Assembly (NCBI GenBank): GCA_905178155.1
Contig: CAJINV010000018.1
Span: 407,028-471,027, forward strand
Reading direction: 5' to 3'
From: Amoebophrya sp. A120
Lineage: Eukaryota; Protista; Dinoflagellata
Length of the DNA stretch: 64,000 bases
The notes beneath the pieces are model-generated. The model was not told where the DNA came from and searched no databases. It saw only the letters and a list, made by a program, of their open reading frames with translations. Shown piece by piece: positions 1 through 63,639 of this stretch. A program made the translations under genes and the position numbers. How positions within the stretch are numbered: the stretch's first letter is position 1; every line of letters begins with the position of its first letter.

Positions 1-3000
1 AGACGCTCATCAGCAAATCTCGCTCCTTCTTCAACCTGCCTAGTTCGATCTCGTCCACATTCACATCTTCATACCGCTCCAAGTAGTCGTCCAGCCGCTC
101 CACGCGTTTCTTGAAAACGTGCCGGAGGTACTGTCAAATGCAAAAGTGTCTGGGTCTGGAAGAATGCAGACTTGTCATGCATATTTTGTATGATGACTGA
201 TGCCTCCAATGCATGATCTAGCAACACAGATTTTTAGAGGGCTTCCTAATGCCTATTTCGCATGAGAAATGCCCTCTCAGCGTAACACAAACTGGAGTCC
301 TGTTGCTGGTCATGCAATACAGATTTTTTTGGAATCCAAAGAAAGCATTACAAGTTGCAATCTTCCAGTAGACCCAGACATTTTTGCAATCCATAGGTAT
401 ACCTGGTTCTGCATTCGGAGCTGATACTCCTTCAATCTCGCCCCCCTCTATCAAAGTGAAAAATCCCCCCTCCCCATATTGAAACGGAGATTTCAGTTGC
501 TGGATTTGTGTACACAGATCAGCTCTGTCTTGCTGTGAGGCACTGCAGACAAAGCCTAAGCCTGTGTAGGTTTGTTTTGATGTAGGTGCTTAGCATAGCA
601 GAGGCATGCCATGTAGCCGCAACAGCAAGACAAATCGCCCGCATAGGCCGTCGGATTCTTTGGATTTGCCCTCTTGCAAGAGCGACAGGATTTGTGGTCA
701 CAAATCAGCATCACAAATTTTTAGGAACATATTGTTCAATATGGGGAGGGGGGATCTTTCCTCACAATAGCCTCGGCTCCTGCACGATGGTCCGGACGAG
801 ATTGTGCTGCGGCTTGAACTATGCACTGCAAATATGTCTGAGTCTGGAAACTTGTGATGCAAGTCAGTCAATAACAAATGCACTGTAATTATGCGCCGCC
901 AAGCATGACAAGTTTTCTCGTGCTTCTGTGTTCTTGCGTATTCCACATGACAGGCGAGAGAAACTGTTTGTGGTCAACACGCAACACAGATTTAAGGGCC
1001 ATGCCAGATCAGCATGTGAAATTTCGCAACCCACCTCCAGACCCAGATCGATGTTTGCATTTCATATGAACAAGTTGTGGTCAGTCAAACCACTCAGGTC
1101 GAAGCTTGTGTATCCTGAGCAAAAATGTCTCCACCCAGAGTTGTCATGCAATTTTGCAGCTACAGGAAGATTTGTAATGCGCATCCCCATGAGAGACATT
1201 TCCAGTCACGTTTTGCACTTTGTAATGCTGTCGACAGGATGAGTAGATGGATTGGTGTTGCGGCTGTACTTGCTCGCCCGCACTACGATACAGAGACGAA
1301 CTTGTCATGCTTGACCCCCAAAACTTCTGGATTTGTGTTGCGAGATATCGCCCATCTTGACTCTGGTGTGGGGACGTTTTTACATAGGATATTGTGGTCG
1401 CCAAATTTACGTGTGCTGCCGCCGTGAAACGCGGAAAAATGGTGCTCGGAACAGCTACAGGCGACTGCTTTTGCTGCCCACCTGCAGCAGATGAAACAGG
1501 AGCACTCCGCTGCGCGAGCGGGACGCTGAGTAACCGCCAGAAGTCGTTTTTCACACCAGGAAGTAAACCACTACCGCCGGGCTTTGCTTGTTCGGCTGAA
1601 GCTGCTGCGCCGGCTCCTTGCGGCAGCGCTGCCGGCTGGCCAGCTCCTGCCAACCGCGCTTCTTCCTCTGCGATCAATGGTTTCATCTGCCGCTCTAGGT
1701 AATATGCATTGCAAATATGTCTGGGTCTGGAAGATTCTGAGACTTGGTTGGTTGGTTGGTTGGGTAGCGCCTGTCGCCGGTGCAGGTCCCGCCCTCCATC
1801 GATTGCGATCCGGAGTAGCCGGAACACAAGGCCCTAGTGGCGCAATCGATCGACGAAGCCCTATGCACGTTTTGCATGAGCCATGATGCACGTTTTGCAT
1901 GAGCCATGATGTCTGTGATGCATGCCCTAGCATCACAGATGTTTTGAGGGCATCTTGATGCCTATGTATTCCGCATGGCAAATGCCCTCTCCGCGTAGCA
2001 AAAATCGCATTCCCTTTGCTGCTCATACAATACAGATTTTTTTGGAATCCAAATGCAGCATCACAAGTTGCATTCTTCCAGAGCCAGACATTTTTGCATT
2101 TGATAAATAAAGCGGGTCGACCAACTGAACTGTGCTGTAAGCCTTGTCAAACAAACCACCGAAGGAATTCACGCAGGCTGGCGCCGCTTTGGACCCGTTT
2201 TCGATCGGGCGGCTGGTGATGTATGCAGTGGAAACAAATATGTCTGGGTCTGGAAGAGTCACGCTGTTTTTGCATGACACAGAAGGTCTGGCATGGAGGA
2301 TCTAGCATCACAGGTCTCGAGAAGCTTCCGCAATGCCGAATTCGCATGACAAATCCCCCATTTTGCTGGTAGAAAGTGGGCAGCTTTTGCTATCAATCTA
2401 TGCATGAGAGATTTTTCTGTGTTCTGAAATGCGCATCACAAGTTTGTGTTCTTCCAGACCCAGACATTTTTGCACTCCATATAATGTGCTTTGCGATCAG
2501 CGGCTCCTGCTCCATGATATGAATTGCAAAAGCATCTTCGCACTAGTGGTAATTGCATTACAAATTACCTCAGTATGAAAAACGGAACTTGTGATGCTGT
2601 TTTATCTTGGGATGGAGATTTGTGATGCACAATTGCAATTACTACGAGTGCCATACGTTTGCAATGCATACATGATCGCCCTCGCGAACTGTTGCAGCAC
2701 CTCCTTCACATCGGTCAAATACGCGATGGGGGCGTAGTTCGTCGTCTCCTCAGTGACGGTCGAAACCGCAGCGTCACCTCCAGTGCCCCCAGGTTGTAGT
2801 TGCTCCCCAGAAGCTCCACCTCCTGCTGTTGCGCCACTGCCACCCGGACTAGAACCGGACAGTAGCGACGCGGCGCTTCGGGTCTGCTCCACGGATTGCT
2901 TTTGCGGAAAGAACTTGTGCCAGGTTTTGTCCTTGTCCAAAACTTTCTGCCAGCAGGGCAACTCTCCTATGAACGCCTCAGGTTGGAAATCCTCAGAGTG

Positions 3001-6000
3001 GAAATAGTTTGTGATGCAGAAAAGCATTCCAGTTGAAGCGCCACTTCTAGGCGGCGCATGACAAATTTCCCGGGCAGCACGCAAAGCATGCCTGTCATGC
3101 TCGTCAACGCAAAGGGGTGCCCAATCCTCGTGCTAATCAGCACTCCTATTCTCAAACCCGTAGCAGGACAGTTGTCGGCTTCCATTGCGGCCTCTGCAAT
3201 ACAGTCTTTTTTGCGTCGCATTTCATGCATCACAAATTATTTCCACGTTGAGGATTTCCATTCTGAGGCGTTCATATCTCCCTCCACAGCGTCGGCCGCG
3301 GCGGCCCCCAGTTTTACTTCGTGCATACCGAAAAATAACAGCCGGAGGTTATTGAGATGAAAAATCCCCCCTCCCCATACTGGAAAGGTATGTTTCTAAA
3401 AATTTGCGCTGCTGATTTGTGGCCACAGATCCTGTCTCTCTTGCAAGAAGACAACTCCACAGGCACAGGCTCTGCCGCATTATGCAAGCGGTTTGTGATG
3501 CTGTTGCGCCTACAGCGTAGACGTTTCTCATGCTAAGTGCCTAGGCCAAAACCTCTCCACTCAGGCTTGGCAGGAGCCTGCAGTCCTCTACTGCAAGACA
3601 AACCTGATTTGTATACGCAAATCCAGCATCAGAAACTTCCGTTTGATATGGGGAGGGGGGATTTTTCCTTTTGATAGAGGTAGTTGTTCAGAGAAGCAGC
3701 GGTTTCGATCGCTTTGCTGCCCATCGGATTGTTATGCCCAGAAGTCCCCCTCGGATTCCTATTCGGTTCCTTCGCGCAGGCCTGGCCGATTTGCTCCAGT
3801 TTCACTTTGGATGCGATGACGTATTGGTGGAACCATTTCAGAAGAAACTCGTCCGTGATCAATTTCGTCAAGTCTTCATTTCTCGTATTTTCGAAAGATC
3901 CCCGTCGCTCGTCCAGCACATACCGGATGAAATGCGATCCGATGGTACTGTCTTCGAAGCTTGCGCGGAAGCTGTTTCGCCGCACTTCGTCCATCCAACT
4001 GAAGCCGAAGATGCTCGCAACCAAGACATATCAAATGCAAAAATGTCTGGGTCTGGAAGGTTGCAACTTGTCATGCTGGATTTGGATTCCACAATAAATC
4101 TGTACTGCATGAACAGCAAAAGAGGCCCAGTTTCTACTGCCGCGGTGAGAGGGCATTTCTCATGCAGTATAGGCATCAGGAAGCCCTCGCAAAATCTGTG
4201 ATGCTGGAGCATGCATCACAGACATCAGGAGTCATGCAAAATGTGCATGACAAACCTTGCACTATTCCAGACCCAGACATTTTTGCATTTGGTAAGACCT
4301 TCGCAGCGGAGCTCTGCTCGATTTGCTTCGCCGCGTCGCTCTGAAAGTCGGACAAAAGCTCCTCGTAGGCTACGTGGCTCTGGATCCTCTCGTGCACGGA
4401 GACGGACTGGTCCTCACAGACAAACAGCCCATCGATGTGATCATTCCTGTATTGGGGTGAATCCGGCCTCAAGGTCGTGCGTATCCTGAGTAAGAGCGTC
4501 CCCATACCAGAGTCAAGATGGAAAATCTGCTAGACAAATCAGGCAACTTTGGTTGGTTCGCATGACAAGTTTGTCCTCGTAGTGTAATCCTATTTAGGTA
4601 GTTCAGCAGCATCACAGATCTAGCATATCATGCAATTTAAATTTATAGCATCACAAATTCCAAAACACCACTAGAAAATGCTTCTCATGTGGCTTCGCAT
4701 GAGAGACTTTTTTGGCATGCAGATTTGCATGACAACGCTGGGGTGGGGATGTTTTTACTCAGAATAGTGCTTCCTGGTTGATCATCTCCCGCATACGGGT
4801 TCTGCAGGGGCTTGCACCGTATCCTGTGCAAAAGTATCGTATTCGGATAAATGCAAGCCTTGCATTACAAATATTTTTCTTAAGGTAAATCAGCATGACA
4901 AATTTCATTTCTCATGCTGAGGAAATTTGTAATGCATTTATACGAGTACGATGCTTTTGCAGTTCATACACCGGCCGTTGGTCGCGACATCGAGAATGTT
5001 GGTGAAGGTCCGCTGCACATTAACTACGCCGTCTTGCAGGTAAAGCGACCCTCTGGTCGGGCAAACCGCCAAAGCGGAGGCGTATCACATAGAAAAAAGC
5101 CGGCGGGGCATATTTGTAATGCAAAAATAAATACACAAAAAAATCTGTATTGCATATCCGAAACAGCATGCTATGAGGCCGCCCATGACAGATTTGTCTG
5201 TGTATCTATTTTTGCATTACAAATATGCCCTGCCAGCTTTTTTCTGTGGGATAAGGCGATGGCGATACCGGGACTGGCTTCGGGGCGGCGTTTCGGGCCG
5301 CCAGTTGTGGTATCAAATGTAAAAATGTCTGGGTCTGGAAGGCGGCAGCTTGTCATGGTAAATCTGAAGCATGCAAAAATCTGTGTTGCATGAGTGCCAA
5401 AAGCTGTCCACTTTTGACCAAGCTGGAAGGGAGTTTCTCATGCAGGTGAGGCATGGCAGAGACCTCGCAGAGCCTGTCATGCTAAGTCCCGCATTCCAGA
5501 CCTCATGGGTCATGGAAAATCTGCAAGTTTGAACTTTTCCAGACCCAGACATTTTTACAATCCATATGTGGTTTCCTGGAGCATCTCATCGAACAACCGG
5601 TCGGCACGCTGCACAAAGGTTTCATCCGAGTTCGTTAGATTCGGTTTGTAATAGGAATACCACATCCGCGAAAGCAAATACCGGTCCGAGATTCGACGCA
5701 TTGGAATCACGAGCGACGGGTTTGTCGCATAAAGAGCTGCGGACTTGCTCCTCGATCCAAGCAGGACCAAAGTCTCCGGGTCGGTCACTGGATTTTTGTT
5801 CACCATTTCCGCATTGACGAGTAGCCTCGCCGCAGTCGTGTCGCGCGTCGCGAGCAACCGGAAGTGCCAGTCGCGGAGCATTTCCTCTAGCTGCTCGAAA
5901 GAGTCCTCCGTAGACATGGGTGGTGGCGGAAAGCGTTTTCCGATGATCTGTCTTTTCGGAATTTCATGCTCGTTTTCCCTTTTCTCCCTCGCTTGCTGCA

Positions 6001-9000
6001 GGACTATTTTCGCCTGTACTTCCTTTCTGTTGATCCTTTGCAAGTTCTCGTTTTCCTTCGTGACAAAGTTCAAAATATCGAAAGGAAAAATCCCCCCTCC
6101 CCATATCGAAAACGAAACTTGTGATGCTGTATTTGAGGTCACAAATCAGATTTGTCTTGCTGGCGAGGACTGCAGGCCCATATCCGGCCTGAGTAGACAA
6201 GTTTTGGCCTGGGCGCTTAGCATGGCAGACGTCTACACTGTAGGAGCAACAGCATGACAAACCGCCTGTAGAATGTGGCGGAGCCTGTAGACTTGCCTTC
6301 ATGCAATACAGCGACGATTTGTGGTCTCAAATCTGCATCACAAATTTTCAGAAGTGTTCCGGTTTGGTATGGGGAGGGGGGATTTTTCCTCACAATACAA
6401 AAGCTCATCCAGATAGTCGATCAACTTGAAAATCTTCTGCAGAGTGCCACTAGGCGTTCCGTCAGCCGCAAACTCGTGACTTACTACCCGGTCCATAAAC
6501 TGGTAGTGCGGGGCTGTTTGCGACACCAGGTCGAAATGCCTTTTCAGAAACCCGGTCGGACCAAGCGCAGCCTTCATTTCAGCGAGGATATTGAGGTAAA
6601 CGTTTTCCAGCTCCGGGTAGTGTGCTTCCAGCACTCCTGCGCCGTGCTCTCCAGCAGCAGCACTAGTGTCAACATCTCTTTGATCGCAAGAAAAAAGTGT
6701 TACAGTTACACATTGTGTTGCAGGAGCCGCAAGACAGACAACCTTTGTCATGCAGGAAATGCTTGCGAGGTTCGTTTTCTACATATTTTCCCTTATGATC
6801 TTTGCATTACAAGTTTTCTCTGCCACACAGAGAAAATCTGTGATGCAGAAACTCCAACAAATGTGTAACTGTAACACTTTTTTCTTGTGATATCTTTGAT
6901 CGAATGGCAACCTCGTGAATGGGTTTAGAATCTCTACCGCATCGTCTTTGCTGAACTGATATCAAATGTGAAAATGTCTGGGTCTGGAAGAATGCGTGAT
7001 TTGTCATGCAGCTTTTCCATGACCCATGAAGCCTGGAATGCAGGACCTAGCATGACAGATTCTGCGCAATCTCTCTCATGCCTTTCCTGCATGAGAAACT
7101 CCCTCCCGACTTGGTCAAAACTGGACGACTTTTGGTAATCATGCAACACAGATTTTTGCATGCTTCAGATATAGCATGACAAGTTGCATTCTTCCAGACC
7201 CAGACACTTTTACATTTGATAACTGAAAAACTCCCTGGCTCCTCGCCAAAGCCGTCAGCTCCGGGTTGGTTTGGAACTCCATCTCCGCTCGATTTTTCAC
7301 CCGGACCGCCGTCTTCAACATCAGGTGCTCTGCGCCCTTGTAGATCTGTTTATCAAGCTGGTTTGAGCTAATAGGCATTGCGTCCTGCAGTCCGCGAGTG
7401 CCAATCCAGGGGGAAGCGGGGCCTCCTGTTTCGCCACCAGCACTTGATGCTTTCTCTTCGGCGGCCGCAGCATCCTGCAACCTCCGCGGCACCATCCCCA
7501 GCGGGTTTGGCTTCGCAATGTCAAGTATCAAATGTAAAAATGTCTGGGTCTGGAAGATTGCAACTTGTCATGCTAAATCTGCAGCATGCAAAAATCTGTG
7601 TTGCATGATTACCAAAAGTCGTCCAGTTTTGACTAAGTCGGGAGGTAGTTTCTCATGCAGGATAGGCATTAGAAAGGTCTCGCAGAATCTGTCATGCGAG
7701 GTCCTGCATTCCAGACCTCATGGGTCATGGAAAAGCAGCATCACAAATCGCGCACTCTTCCAGACCCAGACATTTTTACATTTGATATCAAGAGCATCCT
7801 CTGTAGCCGCGTAGCCCGCCGGATCGTTTTTGTACAAGAGGATCTTAAAGGTCTGCAAGTCCGTGCCCCGCCGTTCCTCCGCCCTGTTGTTCCACAAAAG
7901 CTCTCGAACCAGATTCTCCGGCTGCACCAGAATCTCTGCGGCAGGTTTGTCCGCGGACGTTTTGGCCGTCGGCGACTGGACCAGGACGTGGAAGAGCGAC
8001 TTGTGGAACTCAGGAGACTGGAGAAGTTCTTGTTGCTCTCTAGTACTTCTAGAAGCAGGTTGCTGTCCTCTCGCTGGCGATGTTGCAACCAATTTCTCCG
8101 GATGCAGAATTTCTTTCACCAGTTTCTCGTACTTTTCATTCTGGTATTCGTTTTGATCTTGACGAAAAACCATCCTGTGCAAAACTATCGTACTCGTATT
8201 GCAATCATGCATAATACAAATCTTTTGATTACGGTAAATCCGCATTACAAATTTTATTTCATCTCATGCTGCGGAAGTTTGTAATGCATGTATACGAGTA
8301 CGATACTTTTGCAGTTCATAAAAACCCCAACTAAACCGTATAACCCGCTCAGGTGTTACAATCTCAAACGTTACAATAGAATTTGGAAACCTGTGATGCA
8401 AGAGCGCATGATCTAGCCAACTCTCATAGGATTGCGCATGACAAGTTCTAGAGTCCTAATCCGCACTACAATCTGGCGAAATTTGTATTGCAGAAAGTGG
8501 AATGCTGTCTGAGTCTGTCATACTCATCATGCAACACAAATGCCAGATTCTATTGTAACGTTTGAGATTGTAACATCTGAGCAGGTTATAAACCGCAGAA
8601 CGACGGCTTGGTAGTAGCTGTACCTCGTGGGGAAGTGGTTGTAGTAGCAGGGGCATCAAATGTAAAAATGTCTGGGTCTGGAAGAATGCAAGATTTGTGA
8701 TGCAGGTTTTCCATGACCCACGAGGTCTGGAATGCGAGACCCAGCATGACAGATTCTTTGAGGTCTCTATCATGNNNNNNNNNNNNNNNNNNNNNNNNNN
8801 NNNNNNNNNNNNNNNNNNNNNNNNNNNNNNNNNNNNNNNNNNNNNNNNNNNNNNNNNNNNNNNNNNNNNNNNNNNNNNNNNNNNNNNNNNNNNNNNNNNN
8901 NNNNNNNNNNNNNNNNNNNNNNNNNNNNNNNNNNNNNNNNNNNNNNNNNNNNNNNNNNNNNNNNNNNNNNNNNNNNNNNNNNNNNNNNNNNNNNNNNNNN

Positions 9001-12000
9001 NNNNNNNNNNNNNNNNNNNNNNNNNNNNNNNNNNNNNNNNNNNNNNNNNNNNNNNNNNNNNNNNNNNNNNNNNNNNNNNNNNNNNNNNNNNNNNNNNNNN
9101 NNNNNNNNNNNNNNNNNNNNNNNNNNNNNNNNNNNNNNNNNNNNNNNNNNNNNNNNNNNNNNNNNNNNNNNNNNNNNNNNNNNNNNNNNNNNNNNNNNNN
9201 NNNNNNNNNNNNNNNNNNNNNNNNNNNNNNNNNNNNNNNNNNNNNNNNNNNNNNNNNNNNNNNNNNNNNNNNNNNNNNNNNNNNNNNNNNNNNNNNNNNN
9301 NNNNNNNNNNNNNNNNNNNNNNNNNNNNNNNNNNNNNNNNNNNNNNNNNNNNNNNNNNNNNNNNNNNNNNNNNNNNNNNNNNNNNNNNNNNNNNNNNNNN
9401 NNNNNNNNNNNNNNNNNNNNNNNNNNNNNNNNNNNNNNNNNNNNNNNNNNNNNNNNNNNNNNNNNNNNNNNNNNNNNNNNNNNNNNNNNNNNNNNNNNNN
9501 NNNNNNNNNNNNNNNATTTGTGATGCTGTGAACAGGATGAGCAGATGAATCTGTGATGCGGCTGCACTTGCTAACCTGCACTACACTGCAGAGTGCAACT
9601 TGTCATGCGTGACTCACAAAATCTCCTAGGTTTGTGTTGCAAAATCCCCATCCTGACTCTGGTGTGGGTACGTTTTTACTCAGGATACAGCAACGTGTTT
9701 CTTCAAAGTTTTCGGTAAGTAATCCTTCCGACGGAGAATTTGGATCGGGAACAGTGGCATCTCCGGAATCGCGTTGTCATAGGAAGTGAACCGGAGGAAT
9801 TTTTCCAAAACCTGTCTGTTCGTGATGACTTGGAGCTTTTTCGGTTGTTCCCTGTGTTCCACCTTCTCCCACTGCGGCCCCGTCGGAGCAGAGGTAGAAC
9901 CTCCGACCGACAAAGAGCCTGCAATTCCTCTTTCCCGCAGCTGTGACACGGACTTGTTGCTTTCTTTCAGAAAACTATTACTCGGCTCGAGCAAGCAGCC
10001 CATGTTATGGATTGCAAATATGTCTGGGTGTGGAAGGTGGCAACTTGTCATGGTAAATCTGAAGCATGCAAACATCTGTGTTGCATGAGTGCCAAAAGCT
10101 GTCCACGACTTTTGACCAAGTTGGGAGGTGGGAGTTTCTCATGCAAGATAGGCATGGCAGAGACATTATCGCAGAGTCTGTCATGCTAGGTCCCGCATTC
10201 CAGACCTCAGGGGTTATGGAAAATAAGCATGACAAGTTTACACTCTTTCAGACCCAGACATTTTTGCACTTGATACATGTTGATCGTGTGCAAAATGTGG
10301 ATCGTGTCGCCCTCTTTCAAACCTGCCTTTTTCGCCCAGCCATCGAAGTCGGACACTTTTGTGGTTTGTTGCTCTTTCAACTTCTTGATCAGAATCCGCC
10401 CGTGGTGCTGCGAGAAAAAGTCCTCCAACTCGGGCTTCTGACCCGCGATGTTCGCGATCTTTGGGCTGATACTGATATCGCCGTAGAGCTTCTGCAAATT
10501 CTCCTTGGTCGGCTCTTGAATTCCGTGAATTTGCTGGTCTAGGGAAAAGCTCGTGCCGAAATCGGATACAAACTCAAAGTATCAAGTGCAAAAATGTCTG
10601 GGTCTGGTGGAAGAGTGCCAGACTTGTCACACAGGTTTTCCATGACCCATGAGGTCTGGTATGTAGGACATAGCATGACAGATTCTGTGAGAGTTCTTTC
10701 AGGCCTATCCTGCATGAGAAACTGCCTCTCGATTAGGTCAAAAGTGGACAGCTTTTGGTAGTCATGCAACACAGATCTTTACATGATTCAGATTTAACAT
10801 GACAAGTTGCTATTCTTCCAAACCCAGACATTTTTGCATTTGATACGAAGTCCTCAATTCCGAGGCCAGACAGAAGCTCCGGACCGCTGATAGAAGTACT
10901 TCCCGGGTTGGTATGAAATGCAAATATGTCTGGGTCTGGAACAATGCAAGACTTGTCATGCAGATTTTTCATGACCCATGATGCCTGTAATGCATCACCT
11001 AGCATCACAGATTTTTAGAGGACTTCCTAATGCCTAGTCCGCATCAGAAATGCCCTCTCCATGTAGCACAAACTGGACCACTCTTGCTGATCATGCAACA
11101 CAGATTTTCTTTGAATGCAGAGACAGCATTACAAGTTGCAACCTTCCAGACCTGGACACATTAGCAATGCATAGTTGGTCATCTGTCTTGTGAAATCATA
11201 GGTCAACACGTCGAACTGTTTCTTGAATTCCTCTATCGCAAGAAAAAAGTGTTACAGTCACACATTGTGTTGCAGGCCAAGCAAGACAGACCAGCTCTGT
11301 AATGCCGGATACGCATAGAGGCCTCGTTTCATAGGTGTTTTCCCGTAGGATTTCTGCATTACAAGTTTTCTCTCTCATGCTGAGAAATTTGTGTTGCTGA
11401 ATTGACTACAAATGTGTAACTGTAACACTTTTTTCCTGGGATATCCTCGTCGTAATTCTTACTGTTCTTCATCAAATCTGTCAAAAGACACCGGTTCCCG
11501 AACCGGTTTATTTCGGAATTTATCAAATGTAAAAATGTCTGGGTCTGGAAGATTGCATGGTGGTCATGCTTGTCTGGCATGACTCTTAAATCTGTCATGC
11601 ACGTTGCCCAAGAGCAGCGTTTTTCTGTCATGCGGAGACGCAATTTGTCATGCAGAATAGGCAACACCCACAAGCTCAGAAATTTGTCATGCTGAGCCAG
11701 CACTTGAGGCCTCCTCATGCTACGCCACTCAGCATCACAAGTTTCCAGACCCAGACACTTTTACATTTGATAGAATTTTTATCCTTGTATTCCTCCAACC
11801 CAATCTCGAACTTCTCGAGCTTCTTGTATGGAAGTGTCAGAATCGAAATTGACAAAATCGAAAAATTTGTGATGCAGAAAATCGATACCAGTTGGCTCCT
11901 CAGTTTGTAAGTGGCGCATGACAAATTTCGGGAGCACTCAAATCCAGTCTGTCAAGCTGTTTGGGCAAAGAAGACTGCTCCTGTCATGCTACTGTGGCAG

Positions 12001-42484: not shown

Positions 42485-43317
42485 GACTTTTAGAAGTCCT
42501 GTGATGTAAAAACGACCTTGACAACTGTGCTATTGTATTCCGTTTTCGCTCGCACTTCTTCTCCTAGACACATTTTCAAACGAGAAACTGTGCGTGCTTG
42601 TTTTTCCACATAGTTAAAACCGCGAGAAGACGGCTTTCGCTCGTGAGATTTGCTGTTCCGAGTGAAATAAAAAGGCTCGCCCTTTCATCTCTCAACACTC
42701 TCAGAGCATCATTAGACACATGAAGCGCAAAACCTTCTCAACTCCACGCCGGCAGCCTGAGGCTGTGCTGAGCTTTATTGTGTGCCTGTTTGCTGCTCAA
42801 TGCGGACCACTTCGGCGACGGGGCGCGCAACATGACACACCTGGCGCGTCTGGGGCTTTCTGGTGTCACGGTTTCGGGTCACAGCACCCGGCCCGACACA
42901 AATATGAAGGCCATACAAAATCTCCACGCCGCAGTGTCTCAATAAACCGAACACACAGGAGACAGTATCCCTCGCCAACGTGATTGGATCACTTGGTTTT
43001 TCAGGTTCACAAGAACTCCCTTGTTTTCTTTCTCTTCTCTAGTTGATCTAGTTCCGAAACAATACACATTACGCTGCCCCGTTCTCCATTTCGATTTCTT
43101 CATCAAGCAATCATACATGTTGAAATTCTTCGCGCTGATAAGTACCATGAGGCCGTACAACAGGAGAGGCGATCATCTGAAGCATCACAATTGACATTTG
43201 AAAGTAAATTTTCCTGCTGTACTACTACGACACCACCAACCTTTTCAGCAAGAACGCCGTATTTAGGGTTTAGGGTATCGCCGTGTTGATTTCCTCCCGC
43301 GAAGATCGTCATCACTA

Positions 43318-48888: not shown

Positions 48889-50777
48889 CGTCGATAGCTC
48901 TTCTCGACTGCCAGTCTGTGCTTCGTTCTCCTGGTTCTCAAAGTTCGTACAACTTGGTGGCGGACCACCAGGAGCTGCCACAACTACAACAACCAGGCTT
49001 GTTCTCCTCGTTCAGATGAGCGGCCTACAAGCACGACTGTACCAGCAGTTCCAGCCCGCAAGCTACGACTCTCGACGTGGTGGGGAGCACGATTGGTCTT
49101 GCTGCGCAGTCTTCCTAGTAGTGTTGTGCAGCAGGAGACATATTAACCGAGAAGTAACGAGTGCTGGCACTTACTTGTTCGCCAGCACGACGACCAGTCC
49201 GACTTGGAGGGTACTGCTCACATGATACTTGTTGTGAATCGGCATGGTCGTGGGTTAGAATTTTCTATATGTTTTGTTCTTCATAAAAATCACCCAAAAA
49301 TGCCACAACGCATAATTCACAGACTGTAACGGGATTGTTCTTCACGCAGAACACATGGGATTTTTGCTCCTCGTTGTCATCTTTTACGATTGGGAATGGG
49401 ACCTGCTAAAGTGGTCAACTAGAAGTATGGACGACCGACGCTATTAAGTACACAAATTATACACAACGGAAACGAGTCCTCCGAAAAACATGTTGCAGCA
49501 AAATAATTTTGTTCTTGACAACTACGGTTGACAATATCGACCGCTCGAAGCAAGAGCATACAGGTACTACTGCCAACAACTCGGAGATGACGAACTCAAT
49601 TCTATTGCAGTGGAGATGAGAAATATTTAGAGTACGGTATAGCTGCTTAGCTGTAGCAGGTTGGCCACGGCAGCTCAACACGCAAGTGCTTGTGAACACA
49701 CGTTGGAGAGGACGGACAGTTGAGTGGACCTTGTTCTCTTTCTACTGGACCGACATAATTGATGTAGATGACAGTAGAACCCAGATGCACAAAAACAAAC
49801 TTAGTTTGACAACAACAGGAAGCCAGAAAAATGGAGGGCCTTGTTGTATTGATGAACAGGCTTCTTGTTCTTCTAGTATCGGTTGCCAATCACAACTACC
49901 TCTTGGTCTTGTGTTCTTCGATTTGGCCCTTCGCCCTCGTCTCGCTTCTGCGAAGGTGGTGTCATGATTTTCTACTCTTGCATTTTACAACGAGAATGTG
50001 ACCTCCGGACGAGTGGTTTGTTGTTCAGCATAGAGGCAGGATCTTCTCTTCAGCATAGAGGGTTGAGGTACTTCTAGAACGGGATTTCTAGTTCTGTTTT
50101 AATTTCAATTTGTCGTAAACGGACACGTTCGTCTAACACTTCATTTTTACTTTTTTTCCGTTGAGTGCTTCTCGTTTATTTCTTGACCTTGGAATCTATC
50201 TTTTTTATTCGTCCAAAAACCGCGGAGAGTTCCTTGCGGCGGCAGAGATGATGCTCACAAAAATATGAAGAGCTACTTCCTAAAATGGTAAAGTCCTAAA
50301 ATGGTACACAAATGTTAATTTTTAGAAGTGCTGAATCGTCCTACAACGAACTTCTATCTTCGCGCAGCTTAATTTTTCTGAAAACTTATTCATTCATCCG
50401 AATTATGCACCGTTTTGCAACATCATCATCATCATCATCAAACTCCTGCCCCGGGGGGAGCAGCGTGCACTGCGACATCAAAAACAAAGGTGGTCTGAGC
50501 ACTCACACAGTAGCCTAGCTCCTGCTCCTCCTGTAAGCTCTCTAGAAAATCAGCAACAAAACGCAAAAGTTCATCATTTGAGCGTAGCGCAGTAGTTTCA
50601 TTGTTCATTCTAATAGCGCTCCCGAATAAAAATGCAGTGGTGTAGCGTACTTACCGCCTTGATGCAAAGGGGTACGAGAGCGGGATTAATATTTTTGTTT
50701 ACAACTGTATATCATTTTTGTGTTGGGTCGTCAGGGTCTGCAGCTTCCACTTCCGCTTCCCCAATGGGACTCCACGT

Positions 50778-53700
50778 TCACCCTTGAGCAAAATTGGACA
50801 AATCCCGAAGCAAGGCATCGGCCTCCTTGAACAAAAGTCGGACGGGTATGCATTGCAAATATGTATGGCTATGGACTTGGATCATGAAGTAAAAATGCCT
50901 GTCTTGCATGCCCGCCTTTCGTCCTGTGATGTAGATGCGCCGCTGCAAGAAGTTAGTAGTCCTCGTGTATAAATTGTTTTGCATATAATGAAGATTGTGC
51001 GAAAGAGCAACAGCGACAACGAAAAGCGAGGCCTTCCTTTGTTCTGATTCGCACATCGGCGTGATGAAGAAGATCTGATGCGCTCTAACAAGCTCTATGC
51101 TCCACCACGACCACGACTACAACAACGGATAATGTCGATGAATAGGCCCCGGCGCCCCCCGGGGGCGGGGCCCGGTGGCGGCGGCGTCCGCGGGCTCTTG
51201 TCGAGGCCGCCCGGCAGGCGCCCCCGTAACTTGCGCCCTTCCGCCCCCGCCTTTTTCTTCGGTTTGCGACTTTTTTTCTTCACTTTGCGACTTTTTTTCT
51301 TCACTTTGCGGCTTTTCTTCTTCAGTTTGCGACCTTTTTTCCTCAGTTTGCAAATTTTTTTCTTCAGTTTGCGACCTTTTTTGCTATTAATTTTCGACAC
51401 AAAAAAGCGGCACAGAATGGCTTCCAGGCGGGAAGCGCCGGGGGCACCGGCGGGGCAGCGCGCGGCGCACCCACAAGCTCCGGCGGCCGCCCACAAAGCC
51501 GCGCGGAGCACCTTCCACGCTGCGCACGCCTTTTGTTTTTTGGCTAGTTTCGCGAGTTTTTTCGTGCCCCGGCTTTTTTTTTATGTCCCGGCGGCATTTT
51601 TCCCTGCTTTGCGCGGCCAAACAGGACGCCGCTTGTCATTTTTTTCCCTTTAAGCAGGTCCCAATAATCTTGCGCGCCGGAACGTACCTGCACCGCGCCG
51701 ATACGCCCCAACTTGTTTTGCTTCCACGGGATTTTCCTTTCCGCTGGAGCCCTCTTAAGGTCCACTTTCCCGCGGTTCTGCGTCGCCCACGAGTCCGGAA
51801 AAAGACTTCGGGATTACTTCGGTTTTACTTAGGATTCACTTAGGCCAACACTTAGGTTTATCGAGAAAAACCAATACTAAAAGCTCTATGCTCCACCACG
51901 ACCACGACTACAACAACGGATAATGTCGATGAATAGACACGACATCATGCATAGAAATTCAACTGTAACGGTTCGCCCACTACTTCACAGGTAGGACGAC
52001 TTCTGAGTAGAACCATACACACCTTAAAGACTTATTTGCAATGCGTAGCGCGCTTCTGCTGTTCCACCACGGCGCCCGCGGCTCTGATGTATTTTTCGTC
52101 GTGCGCGGATCTGAATAGCCGGATCTCTTCTTCTGGCACCGCTGGAGGGGAAACATAAACAAGATCAGGCTCCTGATGTTGTTCTCCGGCCGTGCTGCTC
52201 GTGCCGCTGCTTTCGCTGGAAAAATATTCGTCGTGGTCCAGAAGAGGATCTTCCTCTTCTGCTTCAGGAAGCAGGTCAGAATCCGAGTCGGCGACGACTT
52301 GCTGCACCCTTCGGAAACCTGGTCGTGTAGTATTGGCAGCAGGCGGAGGCGGAGGTGGCCCCCGCGAGTAGAGCACATCTTCACGAAGATCTGCTTCTTC
52401 CTTGCCGGCCCTGATGCGTTCGACTTGGTCGGCTTTGTTTTCCAAAAAGTGCTGGCAAGCGTCGTGCATGGAGGGGGGGAGCCGCGAGAGAATGGCATAC
52501 CGCGCCAGGGTGCTTTTGGGCATCAAGTAGTTCTGCGCCCCCTCTCTTTGCCTCGTTTTTAGCGAATAAATTTTGTTTCTGTCCACCTCCTGGCAGGAAT
52601 ATAGCTCGCCTTCATCTTCTTTCTTGCTCTTCCCTGAAGTGGCGGGCCTTGTTCCTGTGGCAGTTGCTGTTGGTGTTGTCGTGGTTGATAGTAGTTGTAT
52701 TCCCGGTCCTTTGACGCTATAGGTGGTAAAGCTCCACTGCGCGTCGGAGTAGTCAGAGTTCAGCACTTCCTTGCGCGCCTCGTCCAGCACAGTTTTGTAG
52801 TCGGCCCCGTACTCAGTCTCGTTTTTGTTCGGCATGGCAATGCGAAACACTTCGCTGACATCCACCGCCATGCGTTCCTCCAAGCGCACTCGCATCCACA
52901 CAGCTTCGAGGGCTCTAGCAAGAAGACGCGTTGCTATTGCCTTAGCTGCAGGGTCAGCGGCGCCAGTCCTCGTGGCGCATGCGCCCCTACTCACCAGGCC
53001 CGCTGCTTCACCCCGCTCGCGTAGTTCTCCGATATTCGGAAAGCGGTAGGACCTTCTGGATCGGGTCCAGCAGAAGCTCCTGCCACACCTCTCTGCTTCT
53101 ACCACGGGGGGCGCGACAGGAGTTGCGGTGTTGACGTGTGGCGTAGGTACAGTTTTTGGAGCTGCTCCCATTTTTGCGACGTCCTCCCGAGATAAAGTTT
53201 CCCCTTCTGGTCTCTTTCTCCTTTTTGGCAGCTGCTTCCGACTGCGTTGGCCGCTGATGATAGCTCGCTGCAACATCTCTCGTCGCAGTTGCTTCATATT
53301 ATCATTATGCGACGAAGCGCCATTTTCTACATTTACTTTTTTTGTATCAGGATGCTCAGTATCAGTATCTTGCTGGCCAAACCAATCGTCCAGCATCCCG
53401 CGCGCCGCCTCCCAAACTTCGTCGCGCGTCCATGTTGTCTATCAAGTGCAAAAGTGTCTGGGTCTGGAAAAGTGTAAACTTGTCACGCAGCAGATTTTCC
53501 ATAACCTTAACCCATGAGGTCTGGAAAGAACGAAATGGAATGTGGGATTTAGCATGACAGAATCTGCGAGGTCTCTGCCATGCCTATCCTGCATGAGAAA
53601 CTCCCTTCCATGTTGGTCAAAAGTGGACAGCTTTTGGCACTCATGCAACACAGATTTTTGCATGCTTCAGATTTACCATGACAAGCTGCCACCTTCCAGA

Positions 53701-56700
53701 CCCAGACATTTTTGCATTTGATAATGTCGCTTCGGAGGAGGTCTTGTCAAATTCAAAGAACCTGGCCAGCTCTGCTTCTTCCGCCAAATACGTAGCGATC
53801 TGGGCTGCCTCGAAGAAATCCCGAAGCAGAGTGACCAGCCGCGGATCAAAAGCAGTGCCTTGAGTCAGCGTCTGAATTTCGAGGGCTGTTGCCGCGGCCG
53901 CTTCCAACTGTAAAACATGGAAGCGGGGCTGCCCCGTGGTAGGTCGCGCGTGCAATGGCGCCGCGCTGGAAAACCAATAGAAACGCCACACCAACTCCAG
54001 ATTTGCTACCAGCTGCTCCGGGGTAGGCACAGTTTGGCGGCTATGATTCTTTGTCAGTAGGTCGATGACAGCGACATACTCGAGCGCGCCTTCCTGCATG
54101 TACCGCTCCGGCTCCTCTAAAAGCTCAAGGCCAGCTATGGATGTGTCAGGTTTGAAATCGTCAAAGTTGAAATAGTTTGTCATGCATAAAACGCATACCG
54201 GTTAGACCTACAGTTTGTAGTCGGTGCATGACAAATCTTCCCGGTCCCGGAAGCGAGTCTGTCATGCGGTTTAGGGCAAAAGAGCTGCCTTCTGTCATGC
54301 TAGTTAGCAGTCCAACTTTTGACCCTTACCAGGACTATAATCTACCTCCCGTGGGTCCTCTGCAATAGAGTCACTTTCTGTGTCGCATTTTATGCATCAC
54401 AAATTATTCCAACTTTGACGATTTCAAACCTGACGCTTCCATACCAGCTTCAGATAGCATTGCAAACGTGTTTTGCTCCGCAACGGTTTTCCGCTGTTCG
54501 ACATGTGTATACATCCACGCCTTCCAATTTTCGTTAATGCGGCTCTGCGCCTCCGTTTCTGCAAGCTCCGATGCGCGTACGACATCTTTCACCGCACCCA
54601 TCTCCGAAATCACCTTGTCGCGCCACTCGCGAGAAGCCTGACGCTGGGCCTCAGGAGAAACTACGGGCGCATGACTTCGAGGGCGTAAGAACGCTGTCTG
54701 CCTGGCTACTTGTTCCTTGCGCATTGTCTTCACCAAGTCGCTGAGCCGTCCTTCTGCATTAACCAGGGCGGGAGAAATGGAGTTCTTCGCGTCCCTGCCA
54801 TATGCTGCCACAGCACGCGTCATTTCCCGCAGCGCTTCAAGCTCGTAATTCAGGAACTGCGGTCCCCGGCGTCTCAGCCAGTCACGCCCCAACGCCCGAT
54901 ACAGGTGCGCGCGAGCCCGTGTGCTTTATTGTGAGGAAAAATCACCCCTCCCCAGGCCCAGATTGAAAAGACATCCTTCTGAAAATTTGCGACGCAGTAG
55001 ATTTGTGGCCACGAAACATTTCTGCCACGCAAGAAGGCAATTGCCGGGATATGCGCGGCCACAATAAGTATACCGGGCGTTATGTCATGCGGACTGGCCT
55101 CTAGAGCAGGAGGCCTCTCCCATGCTATAAACAGGCACACCATTGATTACGCTTCCAAACAGGACGAGAGTCAGGCTGCGCCTGTTTACCGCAAGATAGA
55201 TTGAATTTGTGTACGCAAATCCAGCATCAGAAACTTCGTGTCGATGTGGGATGGGGGATTTTTCCTTTTGATACGCTCTTATTGGCAAAAAGTGCCTGAC
55301 AGCTGGGCATCGCCTTCAACTTCCCTCCCTGCACCCACTCTTTGAGGTCTTTGTTGAAACGACTTATGCATCGCAAATATGTGCTGGTCTAGGTGTGGAA
55401 ACTCGTGATGTGAAGGTATCATGGATGGGTCTGGTACTTATTTCAAGGGCAGCCAAGCATGAGAAGTCTATGACGCCGTCTGATACGTAAACGTAGCACG
55501 CATGACAAAGACAAACTGCGTCTTTGCACGACAATAAAGTAACGCCTTTGATGCTGGCTATCGTTTTGCAACACAGATCATTTTTCAGGATGAATGCTAG
55601 ACATGCATCACAAGCTCCACTTTTCCAGACCCAGACATATTTGCACTGGATAAGACTACCACTACTCTTTGTATCAGAAAAGGGCTGGCCGTCGCGTCCT
55701 GTGATGGTGATGCTGAAGGCATTTTTTTCATCACTCACGTCCTGCTGTTGAGCACCAATGATTGGCGTTCTACTTGATTTTCCCGGCGGCATTGCTGACT
55801 CAGTCCTTTTTACCACGTTTCGCGTTCGGTTTTCTGCACTTTTTGCCTGCTTTTTTACGCGACGTCCAACTACAGCTCCATCCCTACTTGTTTCCGCCGT
55901 ACCAAAGGCATCACTCGCGGTCCCCTCATTTTCGCTGGTACTGCAAAAACGCGAAGTCGTCCTCTGGTGCTGGTCCCCGTGGTCTTCCTCGTGTTCTTTC
56001 TGCAGTAAAATCTCGAAGCGGTTCTCTTTCGTATTGAGCAATGCCGGAGCTCCTGCAGCCTCTTTTTCTGGTCGTCGTGTGATGGTTTCTCGCCTTTTGT
56101 TTTCCATAGAAGCACTCACTTTCTCTGAAAAGGATGAGCGGCCAGACTCTGCAACGACCTCCGACGCCGAAAAGAAACTATCCCGCGCACCATTGATGTG
56201 CTGCGCACCAGCCGGGACTATTAATTTCCCCGCTGCGAGGCACTCGGATGCCCTCTGCCACGCCACAGCAATCACGTTCGCGTGAGCTGGATCGGGCCGC
56301 AGGTGCCGGCCCGTCAACGGGTAGATGAGGCGCCGCGCCGCGTAGCATCGCCACCAGTCTTGGAAGAGGTTTCGGTTTTTATCACATGTAAAAATGTCTG
56401 GGTCTGGAAGAATCGGGACTTGTGATGCACATTTTGCATGACCCGTGAGGTCTGTGATGCTGGTGCTAGCATCACAGATTTTTTGAGAGCTTCTTGATGC
56501 TAATCACGCATGAGAAATGCCCTCTGCGCTTGCCAAGAACTGACTCCTGTTGCTGCTCATGCAACACAGATATTTTTAGAATCCGCAGACAGCATTACAA
56601 GTTCCAACCTTCCAGACCCAGACATTTTTGCAACCCATAGTTTTTCACGAATGGCAATTTGCCGCTGCACACGTGGATGTTGGTATCCAGATCCGCACTA

Positions 56701-59223: not shown

Positions 59224-62200
59224 TTATCTGATAAAAAACCGGTCCTGTTTTCCATCTTCCCAATGGCAAATCTGCGCCCCACAGGTCCAGCCTTGCTGTT
59301 TCCAGCGTCTCGGGTCAGGGTTGTGTTCTGAAGCAAGATCGGAACGAGAATCCGCTTGAATCCGCCTCAATTCCTCCCGCGAAAAATTTTTCCATTCGAC
59401 CGTGCACTTGAGCAGGGTGATCAGCGTGGGGGATTCCAAGATGGCGAACTCCTGGCTGTAACGGACGCTTGTGCGTCTATGTATTGGGGTCTCGAGGGTC
59501 CGCAAAAATGTCTTCCCAACACTGGTCGTCGTGCGACAACCGCCCGCGGCGGCCACGGCCTTCATATTTCACCCGGGATATGAAGTTTTCATTGTCTATC
59601 CCGTCAAAGAACTAACCCACTTCAGACGCAGAGTTGTCATGCTAAACGCAATGCGGTAGTGCAGTGTTGGCACGCAATTCTGGGATCATGTACATGCACA
59701 GAAGTAGCGTCTCTGTCTCACGATGAAAAATTTGTCATGCCAAACCTCCAATCGAAACCACCACACCTTTTATCAAGATCTTTTCACTCCACAGGTGAAG
59801 ATGATTGTATAGTTATGCTTTGGGCGCCGGCCTCAGTTTGAACATGCATTTTCAACATTCTTGGATCTGGTCCGGTGGGTACGTTTTATTTGCCTCCGGG
59901 ATACTATCCAGGTCAAAGTCCGTGGTGTAAACGTGGTCCTGCGATGAGTCGCCACGCTCGTGGGACCGGAGGTGTCTCAACCGCAGGTGGTCCTCATCTG
60001 GCTTCGCGAGGGTCCCCAGAGCTAAACCCGTTTTGCGCATGAAGACTTTTGGGTAATAGGAAGCGAGCGGCGTCTCTTTACTTCCGAACATGCGCTCCTT
60101 GGTTCTTTCACTGAGGGACAGCGCCTCGGAACCTTCATCTACAGGCACGCGCTCCTGGTTGGAAGCTTGCACCCAGTGTAAGTATTTGGGAAAGCTTGCC
60201 TCCAACACCGAGCTGGGATCATTAGTAGGACGAGAAGGGAAGGAAAGCCGCGCGTCGTTCTGTTCTTGGTCGTGTCGTGTAGTTCCTCTAGTCGAAGATG
60301 TGGCACCAGGGTGGAACACAGGAGGCGTCGTTCCTGCTGTAGTCCTGTCCACCTCAATCGACGCAGAAGCTCTTCGTCCTGCTTGATACTCAACATCCGT
60401 TGGGTCTGTGTAGTTCTGGGTGCTTTTACCAGAGAAATTTTCATCAATGCTTTTCTCGAGAAGTTCTTGCGAAAGCCACGTTTCGGAATATTGGTGAACA
60501 GTGTGCCCCTCGCCGGATCGTGCATACCGAGGCCGGATGTGGTCTCGGTAACGGTCCTCCGGATTCAGGCGGTCATCCGCCTGATTCGCAGAGCATTTGA
60601 AGCCGCCGAGACGGAGAAGTTGCTGACTTGCCGGCAGGCGATGTCTCGCCACATCTTCAGTATGCAAGAAGCCCTGGTGAAAATCCTGGTTCGCAGCTGC
60701 TACCGGTGGCACTCTTGTAGGGGCAAGAGACACCTTGCGGCTTCGTATCCAAATGAAAACCAGTTCCAGTATGTAAAACTTGTGAACTCGTGGCGTCTGC
60801 CTTCCCAAGCTGCAAGATGCAGACGCAGCCTTGCAGCTTTGCTGCAACAAATATAATAATTAAAGGACCTTCAGCGACTTGGAGGACTTCTCTCTATTAT
60901 TATTTGCTTGAGAATCTTTATCAATCTAGGAGCGCGAGCGCACTCACCGTGGAGGTGCACCTTTGTTCATATATATTAGAGCCGCATCATCTTGCATCAT
61001 GAGCAGTTTCAACATCATCTTGCATGAGCAGCGGTAGCTCGGAGCAAGACAATCTTTTTTCTACTGCCAAAAAAGTAGTACTAATAGGACGGGAACTTAT
61101 TGTCACTAGGATACTCAGCTCTTTTCGAAGGGCGTGTTCCATTTCCTGTCGCAGCGATGCAGTTTTCTTCTCCTCTCTCGACATAGAAGTATAACCTGCT
61201 CAGCTGTTACAATCTCAACTGTTACAATAGAATCTGGAAATCTGTGATGCAAGAACTGCATGATCTAGCCTACTCCCATGAAATTGCGCATGACAAGTTT
61301 CGGAGTCCCAAACCCACCTGAAATCCGGGAAAATTTGTATTGCGAAAAGCTCAATTCTCTCTGCGTTCCTCATGCTCTTCATGCAATACAAATTCCAGAT
61401 TCTATTGTAACGCTTGAGATTGTAATGTTTGAGCATGCCATAAGAAGTTGTGCCATCTTCTGCTTCCAATGCAGACCCAGCTGCCGTGTGGTGGCGTTCG
61501 TACCACCGCGCGGCGGCTCGTTTCAACATCGCACTTCCGAGGTAATGCCGCTTCGCGTTCTGAGCGAATTTCTTTATCTCCTCTTCCTTTTCAGGGTGTC
61601 GACTACTTTCCGGACCAGGTAAATACGAATAAATGTTCGGCCAAGTGTATTCAGTGCACAACTACGACTCCTCCTCATTTGTAGGGCACGGGCAGCAACA
61701 TTTCTGCCGTTGCTTATGTCATAAGCAACGGCAGAAATGTAAGCTTCCGCATGACAAAGACAAATTTTTTTACGTGCGGACTGTAGTACTGTTTGAGCTT
61801 CGGAAATTTGTCATGCAGACAGTGCTCAGGAGAGGCACGGCCACGGTATGGATTTGGGTTTTTGCATTACAAATGAGCGGGAGGGGGAGGTGTGCACTAC
61901 CTTCGTAAAGTGTCTTGACCGATCCGTCCATATCCCCCCAGGCGCGAAGACGACGACGCCGCAGCGAGTCCTGGCACAGCCAGGTATTGCGAGGAAAAAT
62001 CCCCCCTCCCCATATCGATAAGAAGCTTTGTCATGCTGATTTGTGACCACAAATCGCATCTGTGATGCAAGAAAGCAACGCCACAGGCTCCGCCCCATTA
62101 TGCAGGGGGTGTGTAATGCTATTGGGCCTACGGCATAGACGTTCCCCATGCTAAGCGCCTAGACCAAAACCTCTCGACTCCGGCACGATATAGGCCTGCA

Positions 62201-62369
62201 ATCCTTTACTGCAAGACAAGATTTGTGTTCACAAATCAACATCACAAATTTCGTTTTCGATATGGGGGGGGGAGATTTTTGCTCATGATAACAGATAGGA
62301 AAAGATCTGACCACAGCCACCTAGTTGTGCCAAGAGGTGCAGAATATTTTTAAAAATTGGCCGGGACAT
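59224..62369 (-). CDS. Protein of unknown function with a signal-peptide-like N-terminus; 3' structure uncertain (may end at 59852 or be disrupted)
   Basis: ATG at 62369 (MSRPIFKNILHLLAQLGGCGQIFSYL). Frame restored across elements at 61985, 61648 and 61190. Link to ORF 59852-60850 is not resolved. Confidence 0.55.
59565..59803. mobile_element. Possible highly degenerate introner
   Basis: Weak IR TATTTCACC../..GGTGAAGATG and internal TTGTCATGC motifs; no DR. Confidence 0.35.
61190..61442. mobile_element. Introner, family H
   Basis: Perfect DR AGAAG. Confidence 0.9.
61648..61907. mobile_element. Introner, I-like, degenerate
   Basis: Perfect DR AAGTG. Confidence 0.8.
61985..62290. mobile_element. 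Introner, family B
   Basis: DR CCAGG/ACAGA. Confidence 0.82.
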
Positions 62370-63370: not shown

Positions 63371-63639
63371 TATCAAATGTAAATATGTCTGGGTCTGGAA
63401 GAATGCGCGATTCGTCATGCAGCTTTTCCATGACCCATGAGGTCTGGAATGCAGGGCGTAGCATGCCAGATTCTGTGTGATCTCTCTCATGCCTATCCTG
63501 CATGAGAAACTCCCTCCCGACTTGGTCAAAACTGGACGACGTTATTTGGTAATCATGCAACACAGATTTTTGCATGCTTCAGATTTAGCATGACAGGTTG
63601 CATTCTTTCTTCCAGACCCAGACACTTTTACATTTGATA
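63371..63639. mobile_element. Introner, family A (no 5-bp DR)
   Basis: Both TIRs intact; interior like 6960. Confidence 0.88.

Follow-up and report, generated by a model that had tools for sequence, protein, structure and literature searches.

Introners of Amoebophrya sp. A120 share an internal, helically phased box array that probably serves their mobilization

The genome of the dinoflagellate Amoebophrya sp. A120 contains approximately 30,000 repeated introns in 1954 families, without a known mobilizer or splicing route (PMC7789003). Farhat et al. (2021) described these introners as repeats that start with TAT, followed by seven variable bases and at least three As, with direct repeats of 3-5 bases at the boundaries, and ruled out general transposase-mediated mobilization (PMC7789003). 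In the accessible portions of the two published A120 accounts, the description is confined to ends and hairpins; a shared internal motif, 31-32 bp pairing, phasing or a decay pattern is not mentioned there (PMC7789003, PMC12130899). Here, we analyze a 64,000-nucleotide stretch of this genome (contig CAJINV010000018.1, positions 407,028 to 471,027; the window), in which introners of different families share an internal array of a short motif, the box. Nor did the motif, its pairing, its phasing or its decay pattern turn up in the literature searched, including the accessible portions of PMC11282704 and PMC12005148, with most subscription papers outside the search. The elements are known, and the internal box array is real and apparently undescribed. 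In contrast to the view of Farhat et al. in the portions seen, the boxes argue for a common DNA-binding mobilizer.

The elements of the window share the genome of the published introners, their start with TAT, seven variable bases and As, their short direct repeats and their non-canonical junctions. The ends (TAT..ATA) and the 5-bp target duplication are those of the published introners of A120. The family lengths (149, 209, 226, 252-262, 279, 308 and 322 bases) recur in the part of the A120 table of Gozashti et al. (2025) that was consulted, as 'TIR DNA, Unknown' (TIR, terminal inverted repeat) (PMC12130899). An integrase-like DDE enzyme is suspected for A120 family 38 in the same source (PMC12130899).

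Subterminal arrays of transposase sites, with a proposed part in synapsis, are well documented for piggyBat, Tol2, Ac, Tag1 and the TnsB sites of Tn7 (PMC11707139). As in these arrays, to judge by the sections of that source consulted, a short motif is repeated inside the ends in both orientations and its spacing matters (PMC11707139). Among transposing copies, both the motif sequence and its spacing are also conserved. Unlike in these arrays, the whole interior is filled, the array is common to families whose inner TIRs differ, and its cognate protein is a predicted one. As for the termini, TAT..ATA fits both IS3EU/GingerRoot (TA..TA, duplication usually 6 bp) and IS481EU (TNT..AYA, duplication of approximately 4, 15 or 25 bp) as given in the consulted part of PMC10045372. 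These transposons use integrase-like DDE enzymes, the type suspected for A120 family 38. Among 166 family-0 elements, taken without a duplication filter and with lengths of up to 10 bp allowed, the duplication is exactly 5 bp in 136, 4 bp in one and 6 bp in none. Because the duplication lengths differ, the elements are not filed under either group. The nonconventional introns of euglenids and the non-canonical introns of Fritillaria are, in the passages seen, also derived from miniature inverted-repeat transposable elements (MITEs), removed without GT-AG and joined at their ends by TIRs (PMC11282704). In contrast to those introns as described there, the A120 elements have no fixed junction letters, their stem shows no bias toward G-U, and their interior holds a DNA-phased array (PMC11282704).

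The catalogue of the window comprises 64 complete and 7 partial TIR elements; two old elements (40799-41058 and 43681-44035) were added later. A scan with the commonest TIR, that of family 0, gave 148 stretches that represent 144 loci, all in a single second assembly (contigs JACKZZ01), with 18 of 64 parts covered. These loci amount to 531 kb with overlaps, and all genome-wide statistics given here refer to the window and these loci. They carry the same families as the window, at identities of up to 97%. The element detector recovered 51 of the 64 window elements with zero false calls and none in three shuffles, and it found 364 further elements in the loci. When clustered, 425 interiors formed 14 families (3-196 copies), 2 pairs and 23 singletons, with family sizes biased because the loci were picked by the family-0 TIR. 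The 425 elements have the features of MITEs: they are 112-403 bases long, have a TIR and a target duplication, occur in many copies and lack coding capacity. The smallest of them (112-116 bases; L058:4414-4525 and others in L012 and L035) consist of the TIR and one or two boxes of the same orientation, 32-39 bp apart.

Strands were assigned for 299 of 424 elements by a classifier that was correct in 60 of 61 left-out cases. In the logo of these 299 elements, TAT is present in 97-100% and A in 77-93% at positions 11-14. TAT is found in all families and is followed by S-NNN-N-G-N-AAAA in most; families 5, 7, and 8 have no A run. The composition of the target duplication is flat, with no fixed junction letters, and a GT..AG reading is possible in only 8 of the 299. 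Insertion occurred in both orientations in 11 of the 13 families with at least three oriented copies. The original prediction held that the families had unrelated TIRs that could not be aligned. The inner TIRs and most spacers do differ from family to family. However, the ends and the duplication are shared, alignments beat those of box-preserving shuffles at z>3 in 13 of 91 family pairs (median z 0.76), and families 4 and 13 are plainly homologous. Given the shared end signature and duplication length, the families are not plainly unrelated. At TIR positions 4-10, the change rate over all families is 13% compared with 8.5% in spacers; the words found there seem to come from a small set common to the families, and end swapping is possible.

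The box is a 13-letter motif, AAYYTGTVWTGCD, used as a matrix, with six near-invariant core positions and a false-positive rate of 0.06 per shuffled element. Its strict forms TGTNATGC and GCATNACA occur 105 and 97 times in the window. The claim that boxes are concentrated in the elements was borne out: 195 of the 202 strict matches lie within the complete and partial elements, a density of 9.73 per kb compared with 0.165 per kb outside (42,517 non-N bases), and boxes are present at all seven positions originally quoted. Their number had been overstated as 4-10 per interior. Strict copies number 0-6 per element (median 3, with at least four in 20 of the 64 window elements), copies of the wider TGTNWTGC 1-6 (median 4, never 7-10 in the window), and matrix boxes 1-6 in the 61 short window elements. 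In the 14 families with at least three copies, interiors hold 1.3-4.7 boxes on average versus 0.03-0.15 in dinucleotide shuffles, and the excess is about ninefold or more in every family. These shuffles led us to reject CpG decay as the origin of the boxes. A search of Rfam gave no match.

The boxes are arranged by rule. Of the 14 families, 13 have pairs of the same orientation 31-33 bp apart, compared with a null mean of 2.2 families and a maximum of 8 in 20,000 (maximum 10 in 3000 when any 3-base window is allowed). Over 13 family layouts (family 13, a relative of family 4, was left out) and all distances up to 130 bp, boxes of the same orientation are separated by whole helical turns and boxes of opposite orientation by half turns. 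The combined phase score peaks at 0.56 at a period of 10.4 (phase 0.98 for the same and 0.52 for opposite orientation) and is -0.04 at 11.0. The best of periods 8-14 scored 0.52; none of 600 random layouts exceeded 0.32. When the 31-32 bp pairs were kept as units and their own distances dropped, the score was 0.44 (maximum 0.37 in 3000). The window elements alone also gave 0.44 at 10.4 (367 distances). Phasing is better for the 80 interval lengths seen in at least two copies (mean cosine 0.39) than for the 62 seen once (0.15). Measured from the nearer end, inward boxes cluster at 35-36, 45-46, 55-58 and 63-66 bp, and they are in phase with the element ends. The periodicity that had been suggested for examination was thus found. 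B-DNA has approximately 10.4-10.5 bp per turn, and duplex RNA approximately 11. A phase of 10.4 bp with nothing at 11 is therefore the signature of double-stranded DNA, and like parts of all boxes face the same side of the helix.

We consider it probable that the boxes are double-stranded DNA sites for one shared mobilizing protein that all families need to jump. A mobilization code is more likely than a splicing code. Several copies of one protein would sit on one face of the helix over the phased boxes and bend the 110-330 bp element so that both ends meet; elements of this length are shorter than, or near, the length at which DNA bends freely. The joined ends would then be inserted with a 5-bp stagger, in the manner of DDE/integrase enzymes, leaving a random 5-bp duplication. 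The protein is somewhat more likely to be the DNA-binding domain of the transposase than a host bending factor. ApiAP2 proteins, an alveolate DNA-binding family, bind the apicomplexan motif TGCATGCA, whose CATGC(A) core is shared with the commonest box. The box differs from that motif in being asymmetric, in having the head TGT instead of TGC, and in allowing C, G or A and A or T in the middle. Of the common cis code originally proposed, the option of one shared protein is supported in its DNA form, that of a transposase, by the 31-32 bp pairs, the 10.4-bp phase and the conservation described below; the two RNA options are not supported.

The phasing could also reflect wrapping. The array might position a nucleosome or a chromatin protein, or keep the polymerase moving, so that copies are tolerated or copied more without a direct part in strand transfer. 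A 10.4-bp phase with A/T-rich motif heads is typical of wrapped DNA in textbook accounts. The gaps between neighboring elements pile up at 35-90 bases, like linker-sized exons, and only 7 of 187 gaps are 34 bases or shorter. However, the motif is base-specific at its six core positions, unlike positioning signals, and the inward boxes keep phase with the element ends. The gaps themselves are unphased: helical phasing of inter-element gaps was rejected (0.09 versus a null mean of 0.155, with no 10.4-bp phase). A benefit to the host should also protect inserted boxes, and such protection is weak at most. We regard a chromatin or transcription role as rather improbable. The pile-up of gaps may in itself reflect a zone of exclusion or a lower limit on exon size.

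A further explanation needs no present function. All families might descend from one ancestor with an internal tandem repeat of 31-32 bp, the boxes being an inherited relic. The shared end signature and the weak cross-family similarity beyond the boxes fit such a descent, as does a faint inverted box seen midway in the spacers of several pairs. The comparison between copies is what speaks against it. Private changes were counted in 366 copies found by their interior alone; 107 of 501 copies had been dropped earlier (duplicates, edge cases, too few neighbors or too diverged), and 28 of the remaining 394 were left out with more than two duplication mismatches or unaligned ends. Box cores changed at 308 of 9658 positions (3.2%) and spacers at 8.5-8.8%, so boxes are more conserved than spacers, as had been anticipated. 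Cores thus change one third as often as spacers. The 31-33 bp pair spacing resists indels: it shifts by at least 2 bases in 5.9% of 727 comparisons, compared with 24.7% of 1001 for other 24-42 bp intervals, in copies that are 72-88% alike and in comparisons that are not independent. Moreover, the phase rule holds across layouts that differ in order and orientation. The 'no function' form of this explanation is largely refuted, and descent from such an ancestor as the source of functionless boxes is highly doubtful.

Selection on the boxes appears to act through transposition. In the same 366 copies, duplication mismatch is 86/1830 (4.7%) and change in the terminal triplet 32/2158 (1.5%). Decay after insertion is bracketed at 2.4-4.7% by duplication mismatch, in which one copy of each position is exonic, and the change rate of box cores falls inside this neutral bracket. 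When copies were binned by divergence on alternate sites, core change stayed flat at 2.3-4.3% while that of spacers climbed from 4.7% to 14%. Boxes per 250 bases drop with duplication mismatches, from 4.53 to 4.08 and 3.36 (334, 75 and 15 elements; rho -0.18, p 2e-4). Cores and spacers show, within error, the same increase in change rate between perfect and imperfect duplications. This pattern is what selection through transposition, followed by decay, predicts. Since only copies with intact, in-phase boxes would found new lineages, boxes look conserved among copies. Once inserted, they would decay at about the background rate, and splicing would rest on the ends, that is, the terminal TAT/ATA and the paired TIR, and not on the boxes.

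Removal of elements was examined in the region 29420-49400 with contigs of runs X1 and X8, which come from one sample and were taken as RNA by guess; runs X5 and X6 aligned almost only to repeats, at 90-99% identity. The genes examined all lie on the minus strand. Contigs skip an element together with 5 bases at 30717 (joint 30712 to 30923), 30995 (153 bases), 32905 (271 bases) and 33242 (1001 bases), and the same contigs skip GT-AG introns. In three contigs, the middle stretches of 810, 381 and 728 bases are exactly the exons left once all elements between are removed, with open frames. In total, 19 of the 66 complete window elements are removed from these transcript-like contigs: these 4 by joints seen and 15 as judged from exact lengths (those starting at 31230, 31554, 32317, 32512, 40799, 41474, 41781, 43681, 44316, 46051, 46268, 46619, 47266, 47607 and 47980). 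The element at 33242-34237 is skipped whole though its right 770 bases are box-free, and removal of 44316-45993 appears to include a nested insert of 1.4 kb. Elements with few boxes are also among the 19, namely 40799-41058 (no box at 5 bits; length 381), 43681-44035 (one weak box; length 728) and 46051-46220 (one box). The first two were delimited after the missing length was known and so rest on length, open frame and remnant ends. Box loss did not block removal in these three available cases, which bear on the presence of removal only. At three junctions with unequal duplications (30712-30923, 40794-41060 and 43676-44037), the piece cut out of the transcribed strand begins 1 base ahead of TAT and extends 4 bases past ATA, with any letters.

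These data bear on an RNA code, in which boxes either fold the intron by pairing with each other or act on the transcript as binding sites for a splicing factor. Box-box pairing is indeed predicted at 0.43-0.73 in the palindromic families 1, 4, 5, 6, 7, 8, 9, 11, 12 and 13, and boxes are predicted to be paired more often than spacers. Family 3 is different. The original prediction placed both orientations in every interior, but all boxes of this family have one orientation in 29 of 30 copies; its predicted box-box pairing is 0.03, and it is removed in both orientations (32512 and 46619). A reader of single strands would therefore need to recognize the motif and its complement. Mirror boxes, compared at free positions, show no covariation in family 0 (complementary in 62 of 173 cases versus 63.9 expected) or in two further sets (10/22 versus 10.9 and 10/16 versus 10.6). 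Mismatches in the TIR show no G-U bias on the transcribed strand (G-U 276, A-C 292; p 0.53). The period is 10.4, not 11. Thus, an RNA structural splice signal finds neither covariation nor G-U tolerance here, nor a requirement for removal, since box-poor elements and a box-free one are removed. An RNA splice code is very improbable. On the same evidence of family 3, covariation and box-poor elements, the proposal that the boxes replace GT-AG as the recognition signal is not upheld.

Several observations weigh against the boxes being DNA sites for a mobilizing protein alone. The phase is loose and statistical: among boxes of the same orientation, common intervals such as 18 and 39 are off phase, as are 44-45 among boxes of opposite orientation. 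The rule that oppositely oriented boxes lie at half turns was picked post hoc, although a phase-free test gave 0.61 versus a null maximum of 0.51. A possible shared ancestor of the families lowers the independence of the 13-14 layouts, element lengths are not helically phased, and among nearest neighbors, length changes of any size are no rarer in 31-33 pairs than in others. As for decay, the three youngest clusters (32 copies; duplication mismatch 2/155) have 14 singleton changes in cores versus 24.7 in context-matched spacers (ratio 0.57, 95% interval 0.31-0.95), and in the least diverged bin cores changed at 2.6% versus 4.7% in spacers. Weak selection on boxes after insertion is compatible with these figures, and the redundancy of 4-6 boxes could mask selection on single ones. 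Eight GT-AG introns (2345 bases) hold 6 matrix matches, where 0.5 are expected and at most 2 were seen in 150 shuffles. The protein itself did not turn up in what was searched: no autonomous element was found among long TIR pairs of the window and the 144 loci, a small part of the genome, and the 89 long frames of the loci contained no domain of a transposase or an integrase. Likewise, no transposase in A120 is reported by Farhat et al. in the portions seen (PMC7789003). Viral contigs gave no TIR match. Two candidate TIR pairs of 6.2 kb and 4.2 kb (L058 and L067) were rejected as chance pairings of separate short elements. There were 53 distinct orphan family-0 ends; 17 of them part from the known interiors over the first 200 bases and were set aside, as they look like nested inserts or gaps.

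The boxes in GT-AG introns qualify the claim that exons and intergenic DNA seldom contain the motif: it is rare there, yet present in ordinary introns, which contribute these 6 to the 15 matrix matches outside catalogued elements. They favor an intronic role and leave a splicing role open. In one form of such a role, a protein on the phased boxes would act as a splice mark at the DNA level, handing the nascent transcript to the splicing machinery in place of U1 and GT-AG; it may also mobilize the elements. DNA phasing and orientation independence fit this equally well, and the approximately tenfold enrichment in GT-AG introns and the residual deficit of core changes in young copies point the same way. 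In addition, U1 snRNA was undetected in A120 according to the portions of PMC7789003 consulted. However, elements with 0, 1 and 1 boxes (40799, 43681 and 46051) are removed, as is the one box-free over its right 770 bases, the core change rate lies within the range of neutral decay, and the boxes in GT-AG introns may be relics of old elements. We consider a DNA-level splice mark unlikely. A reading in which one DNA-bound protein on the phased boxes both mobilizes the elements and marks nascent transcripts for removal, replacing U1 and GT-AG, also has little probability; in it, old box-free introns would survive on their ends alone. The box-holding GT-AG introns lie at 34305-34481, 39783-40725, 41116-41254 and 44124-44275. 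Several of them begin with GTA(T/C), the start expected of an element with a G in front of it, and they are possibly old introners turned canonical.

Individual elements of the window are given here with their matrix boxes. In family 0, five boxes are found at 132-395 (family A of the original prediction), 2222-2481, 4029-4294, 6960-7221, 7526-7787 (reversed relative to 6960), 10006-10275, 11521-11772, 12929-13204, 27891-28150, 31554-31815, 32905-33170, 47980-48245 and 53440-53723. Six are found at 10912-11173, 24417-24678, 31230-31481, 41474-41733, 47266-47517 and 56380-56639. Copies with four boxes lie at 1703-2105 (with an internal insert), 5311-5566, 44316-45993 and 55365-55652, and those with three at 820-1066, 10580-10845, 20502-20742 (diverged) and 63371-63639 (without a matching duplication). 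The copy at 15721-15985 contains the quoted boxes 15761, 15795, 15888 and 15936. An assembly gap cuts 8655-8774, and approximately 730 foreign bases lie inside 33242-34237.

Family 1 is represented at 2518-2670, 30995-31142 and 32317-32468 (three boxes each), 8171-8320 (two), 29625-29771 (left end lost or gapped) and 4820-4968, previously designated D, with a 31-bp pair at 4862/4893 and an opposite box at 4928. Family 2 lies at 6682-6892 and 11234-11443 (four boxes each) and 30717-30921 (three). Family 3 lies at 1111-1391 and 4482-4766 (five each), 9516-9690 (cut by an assembly gap), 32512-32796 (five, all TGT..TGC on the plus strand), 35016-35294 (six, upstream of the protease coding region) and 46619-47208 (reversed relative to 32512, six boxes all GCA..ACA on the plus strand, with a nested insert). 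Family 4 has three boxes at 449-769 and 16017-16346, five at 3350-3676 and 6076-6397, four at 47607-47934 (pairs 47666/47698 and 47848/47881) and 61985-62290, and two at 54927-55273 (diverged); its copy at 28473-28719 is cut by an assembly gap.

Family 5 is found at 2968-3276 and 11827-12132 (four boxes each) and 54136-54443 (five), family 6 at 12315-12540 (four), 41781-42006 and 61648-61907 (three each) and 46268-46495 (five), and family 8 at 8339-8590 and 61190-61442 (four each) and 12596-12847 (five). The two copies of family 11, at 5083-5253 and 13253-13423, have four boxes each, which in the former are two 31-bp pairs. Singletons with one box lie at 13843-14171 (family-0-like ends), 22674-22872 and 46051-46220 (duplication 3/5). 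Of the two old elements, 40799-41058 has a decayed TIR (8/25 paired) and 43681-44035 an unrecognizable duplication. A probable decayed element at 59575-59775, with approximate ends, holds strict boxes at 59635 and 59733.

Two host genes in the region, both on the minus strand, carry many of the removed elements. An aspartyl protease gene (29742-34700) contains 8 elements and 3 GT-AG introns; its spliced model equals A120 protein P0001 over 579/579 aligned residues, and its exon 29742-30497 is 100% identical to that protein. The other gene (43300-48462), which we take to be metacaspase-like from its motifs, has an open frame across 8 elements. For a 530-residue exon, no homolog was found at near lengths. 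Part of a GT-AG intron and exon of the metacaspase-like gene (44170-44310) is duplicated outside the gene at 36247-36420, adjoining a 40-bp tandem array (36738-37076).

Some elements have themselves received inserts. The 1.4-kb insert in 44316-45993 (44522-45920) is flanked by TTAA repeats, a piggyBac-like target, and has imperfect long inverted ends; its one scanned frame gave no Pfam match. The insert at 46771-47097, of approximately 295 bases, lies between copies of a 16-bp direct repeat, the end of which is a box. In three family-0 copies of the loci (L043:1143, L061:5972 and L062:9456), inserts headed by a T run follow directly after the first box, resembling poly-A-tailed retro-inserts at one preferred site. 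At 50847-51950, a stretch with a direct repeat of approximately 55 bases at its borders (near 51093 and 51873) comes after a lone family-0-like left end; a right end was looked for there, and none was found.

A single phased box array across the families implies that one DNA-binding protein would serve them all, and it offers a defined bait for finding that protein. It also separates two questions that had been merged, with the boxes probably for jumping and the ends for splicing. Finally, the box motif is a means of finding decayed introners, including ones that have possibly turned into GT-AG introns.

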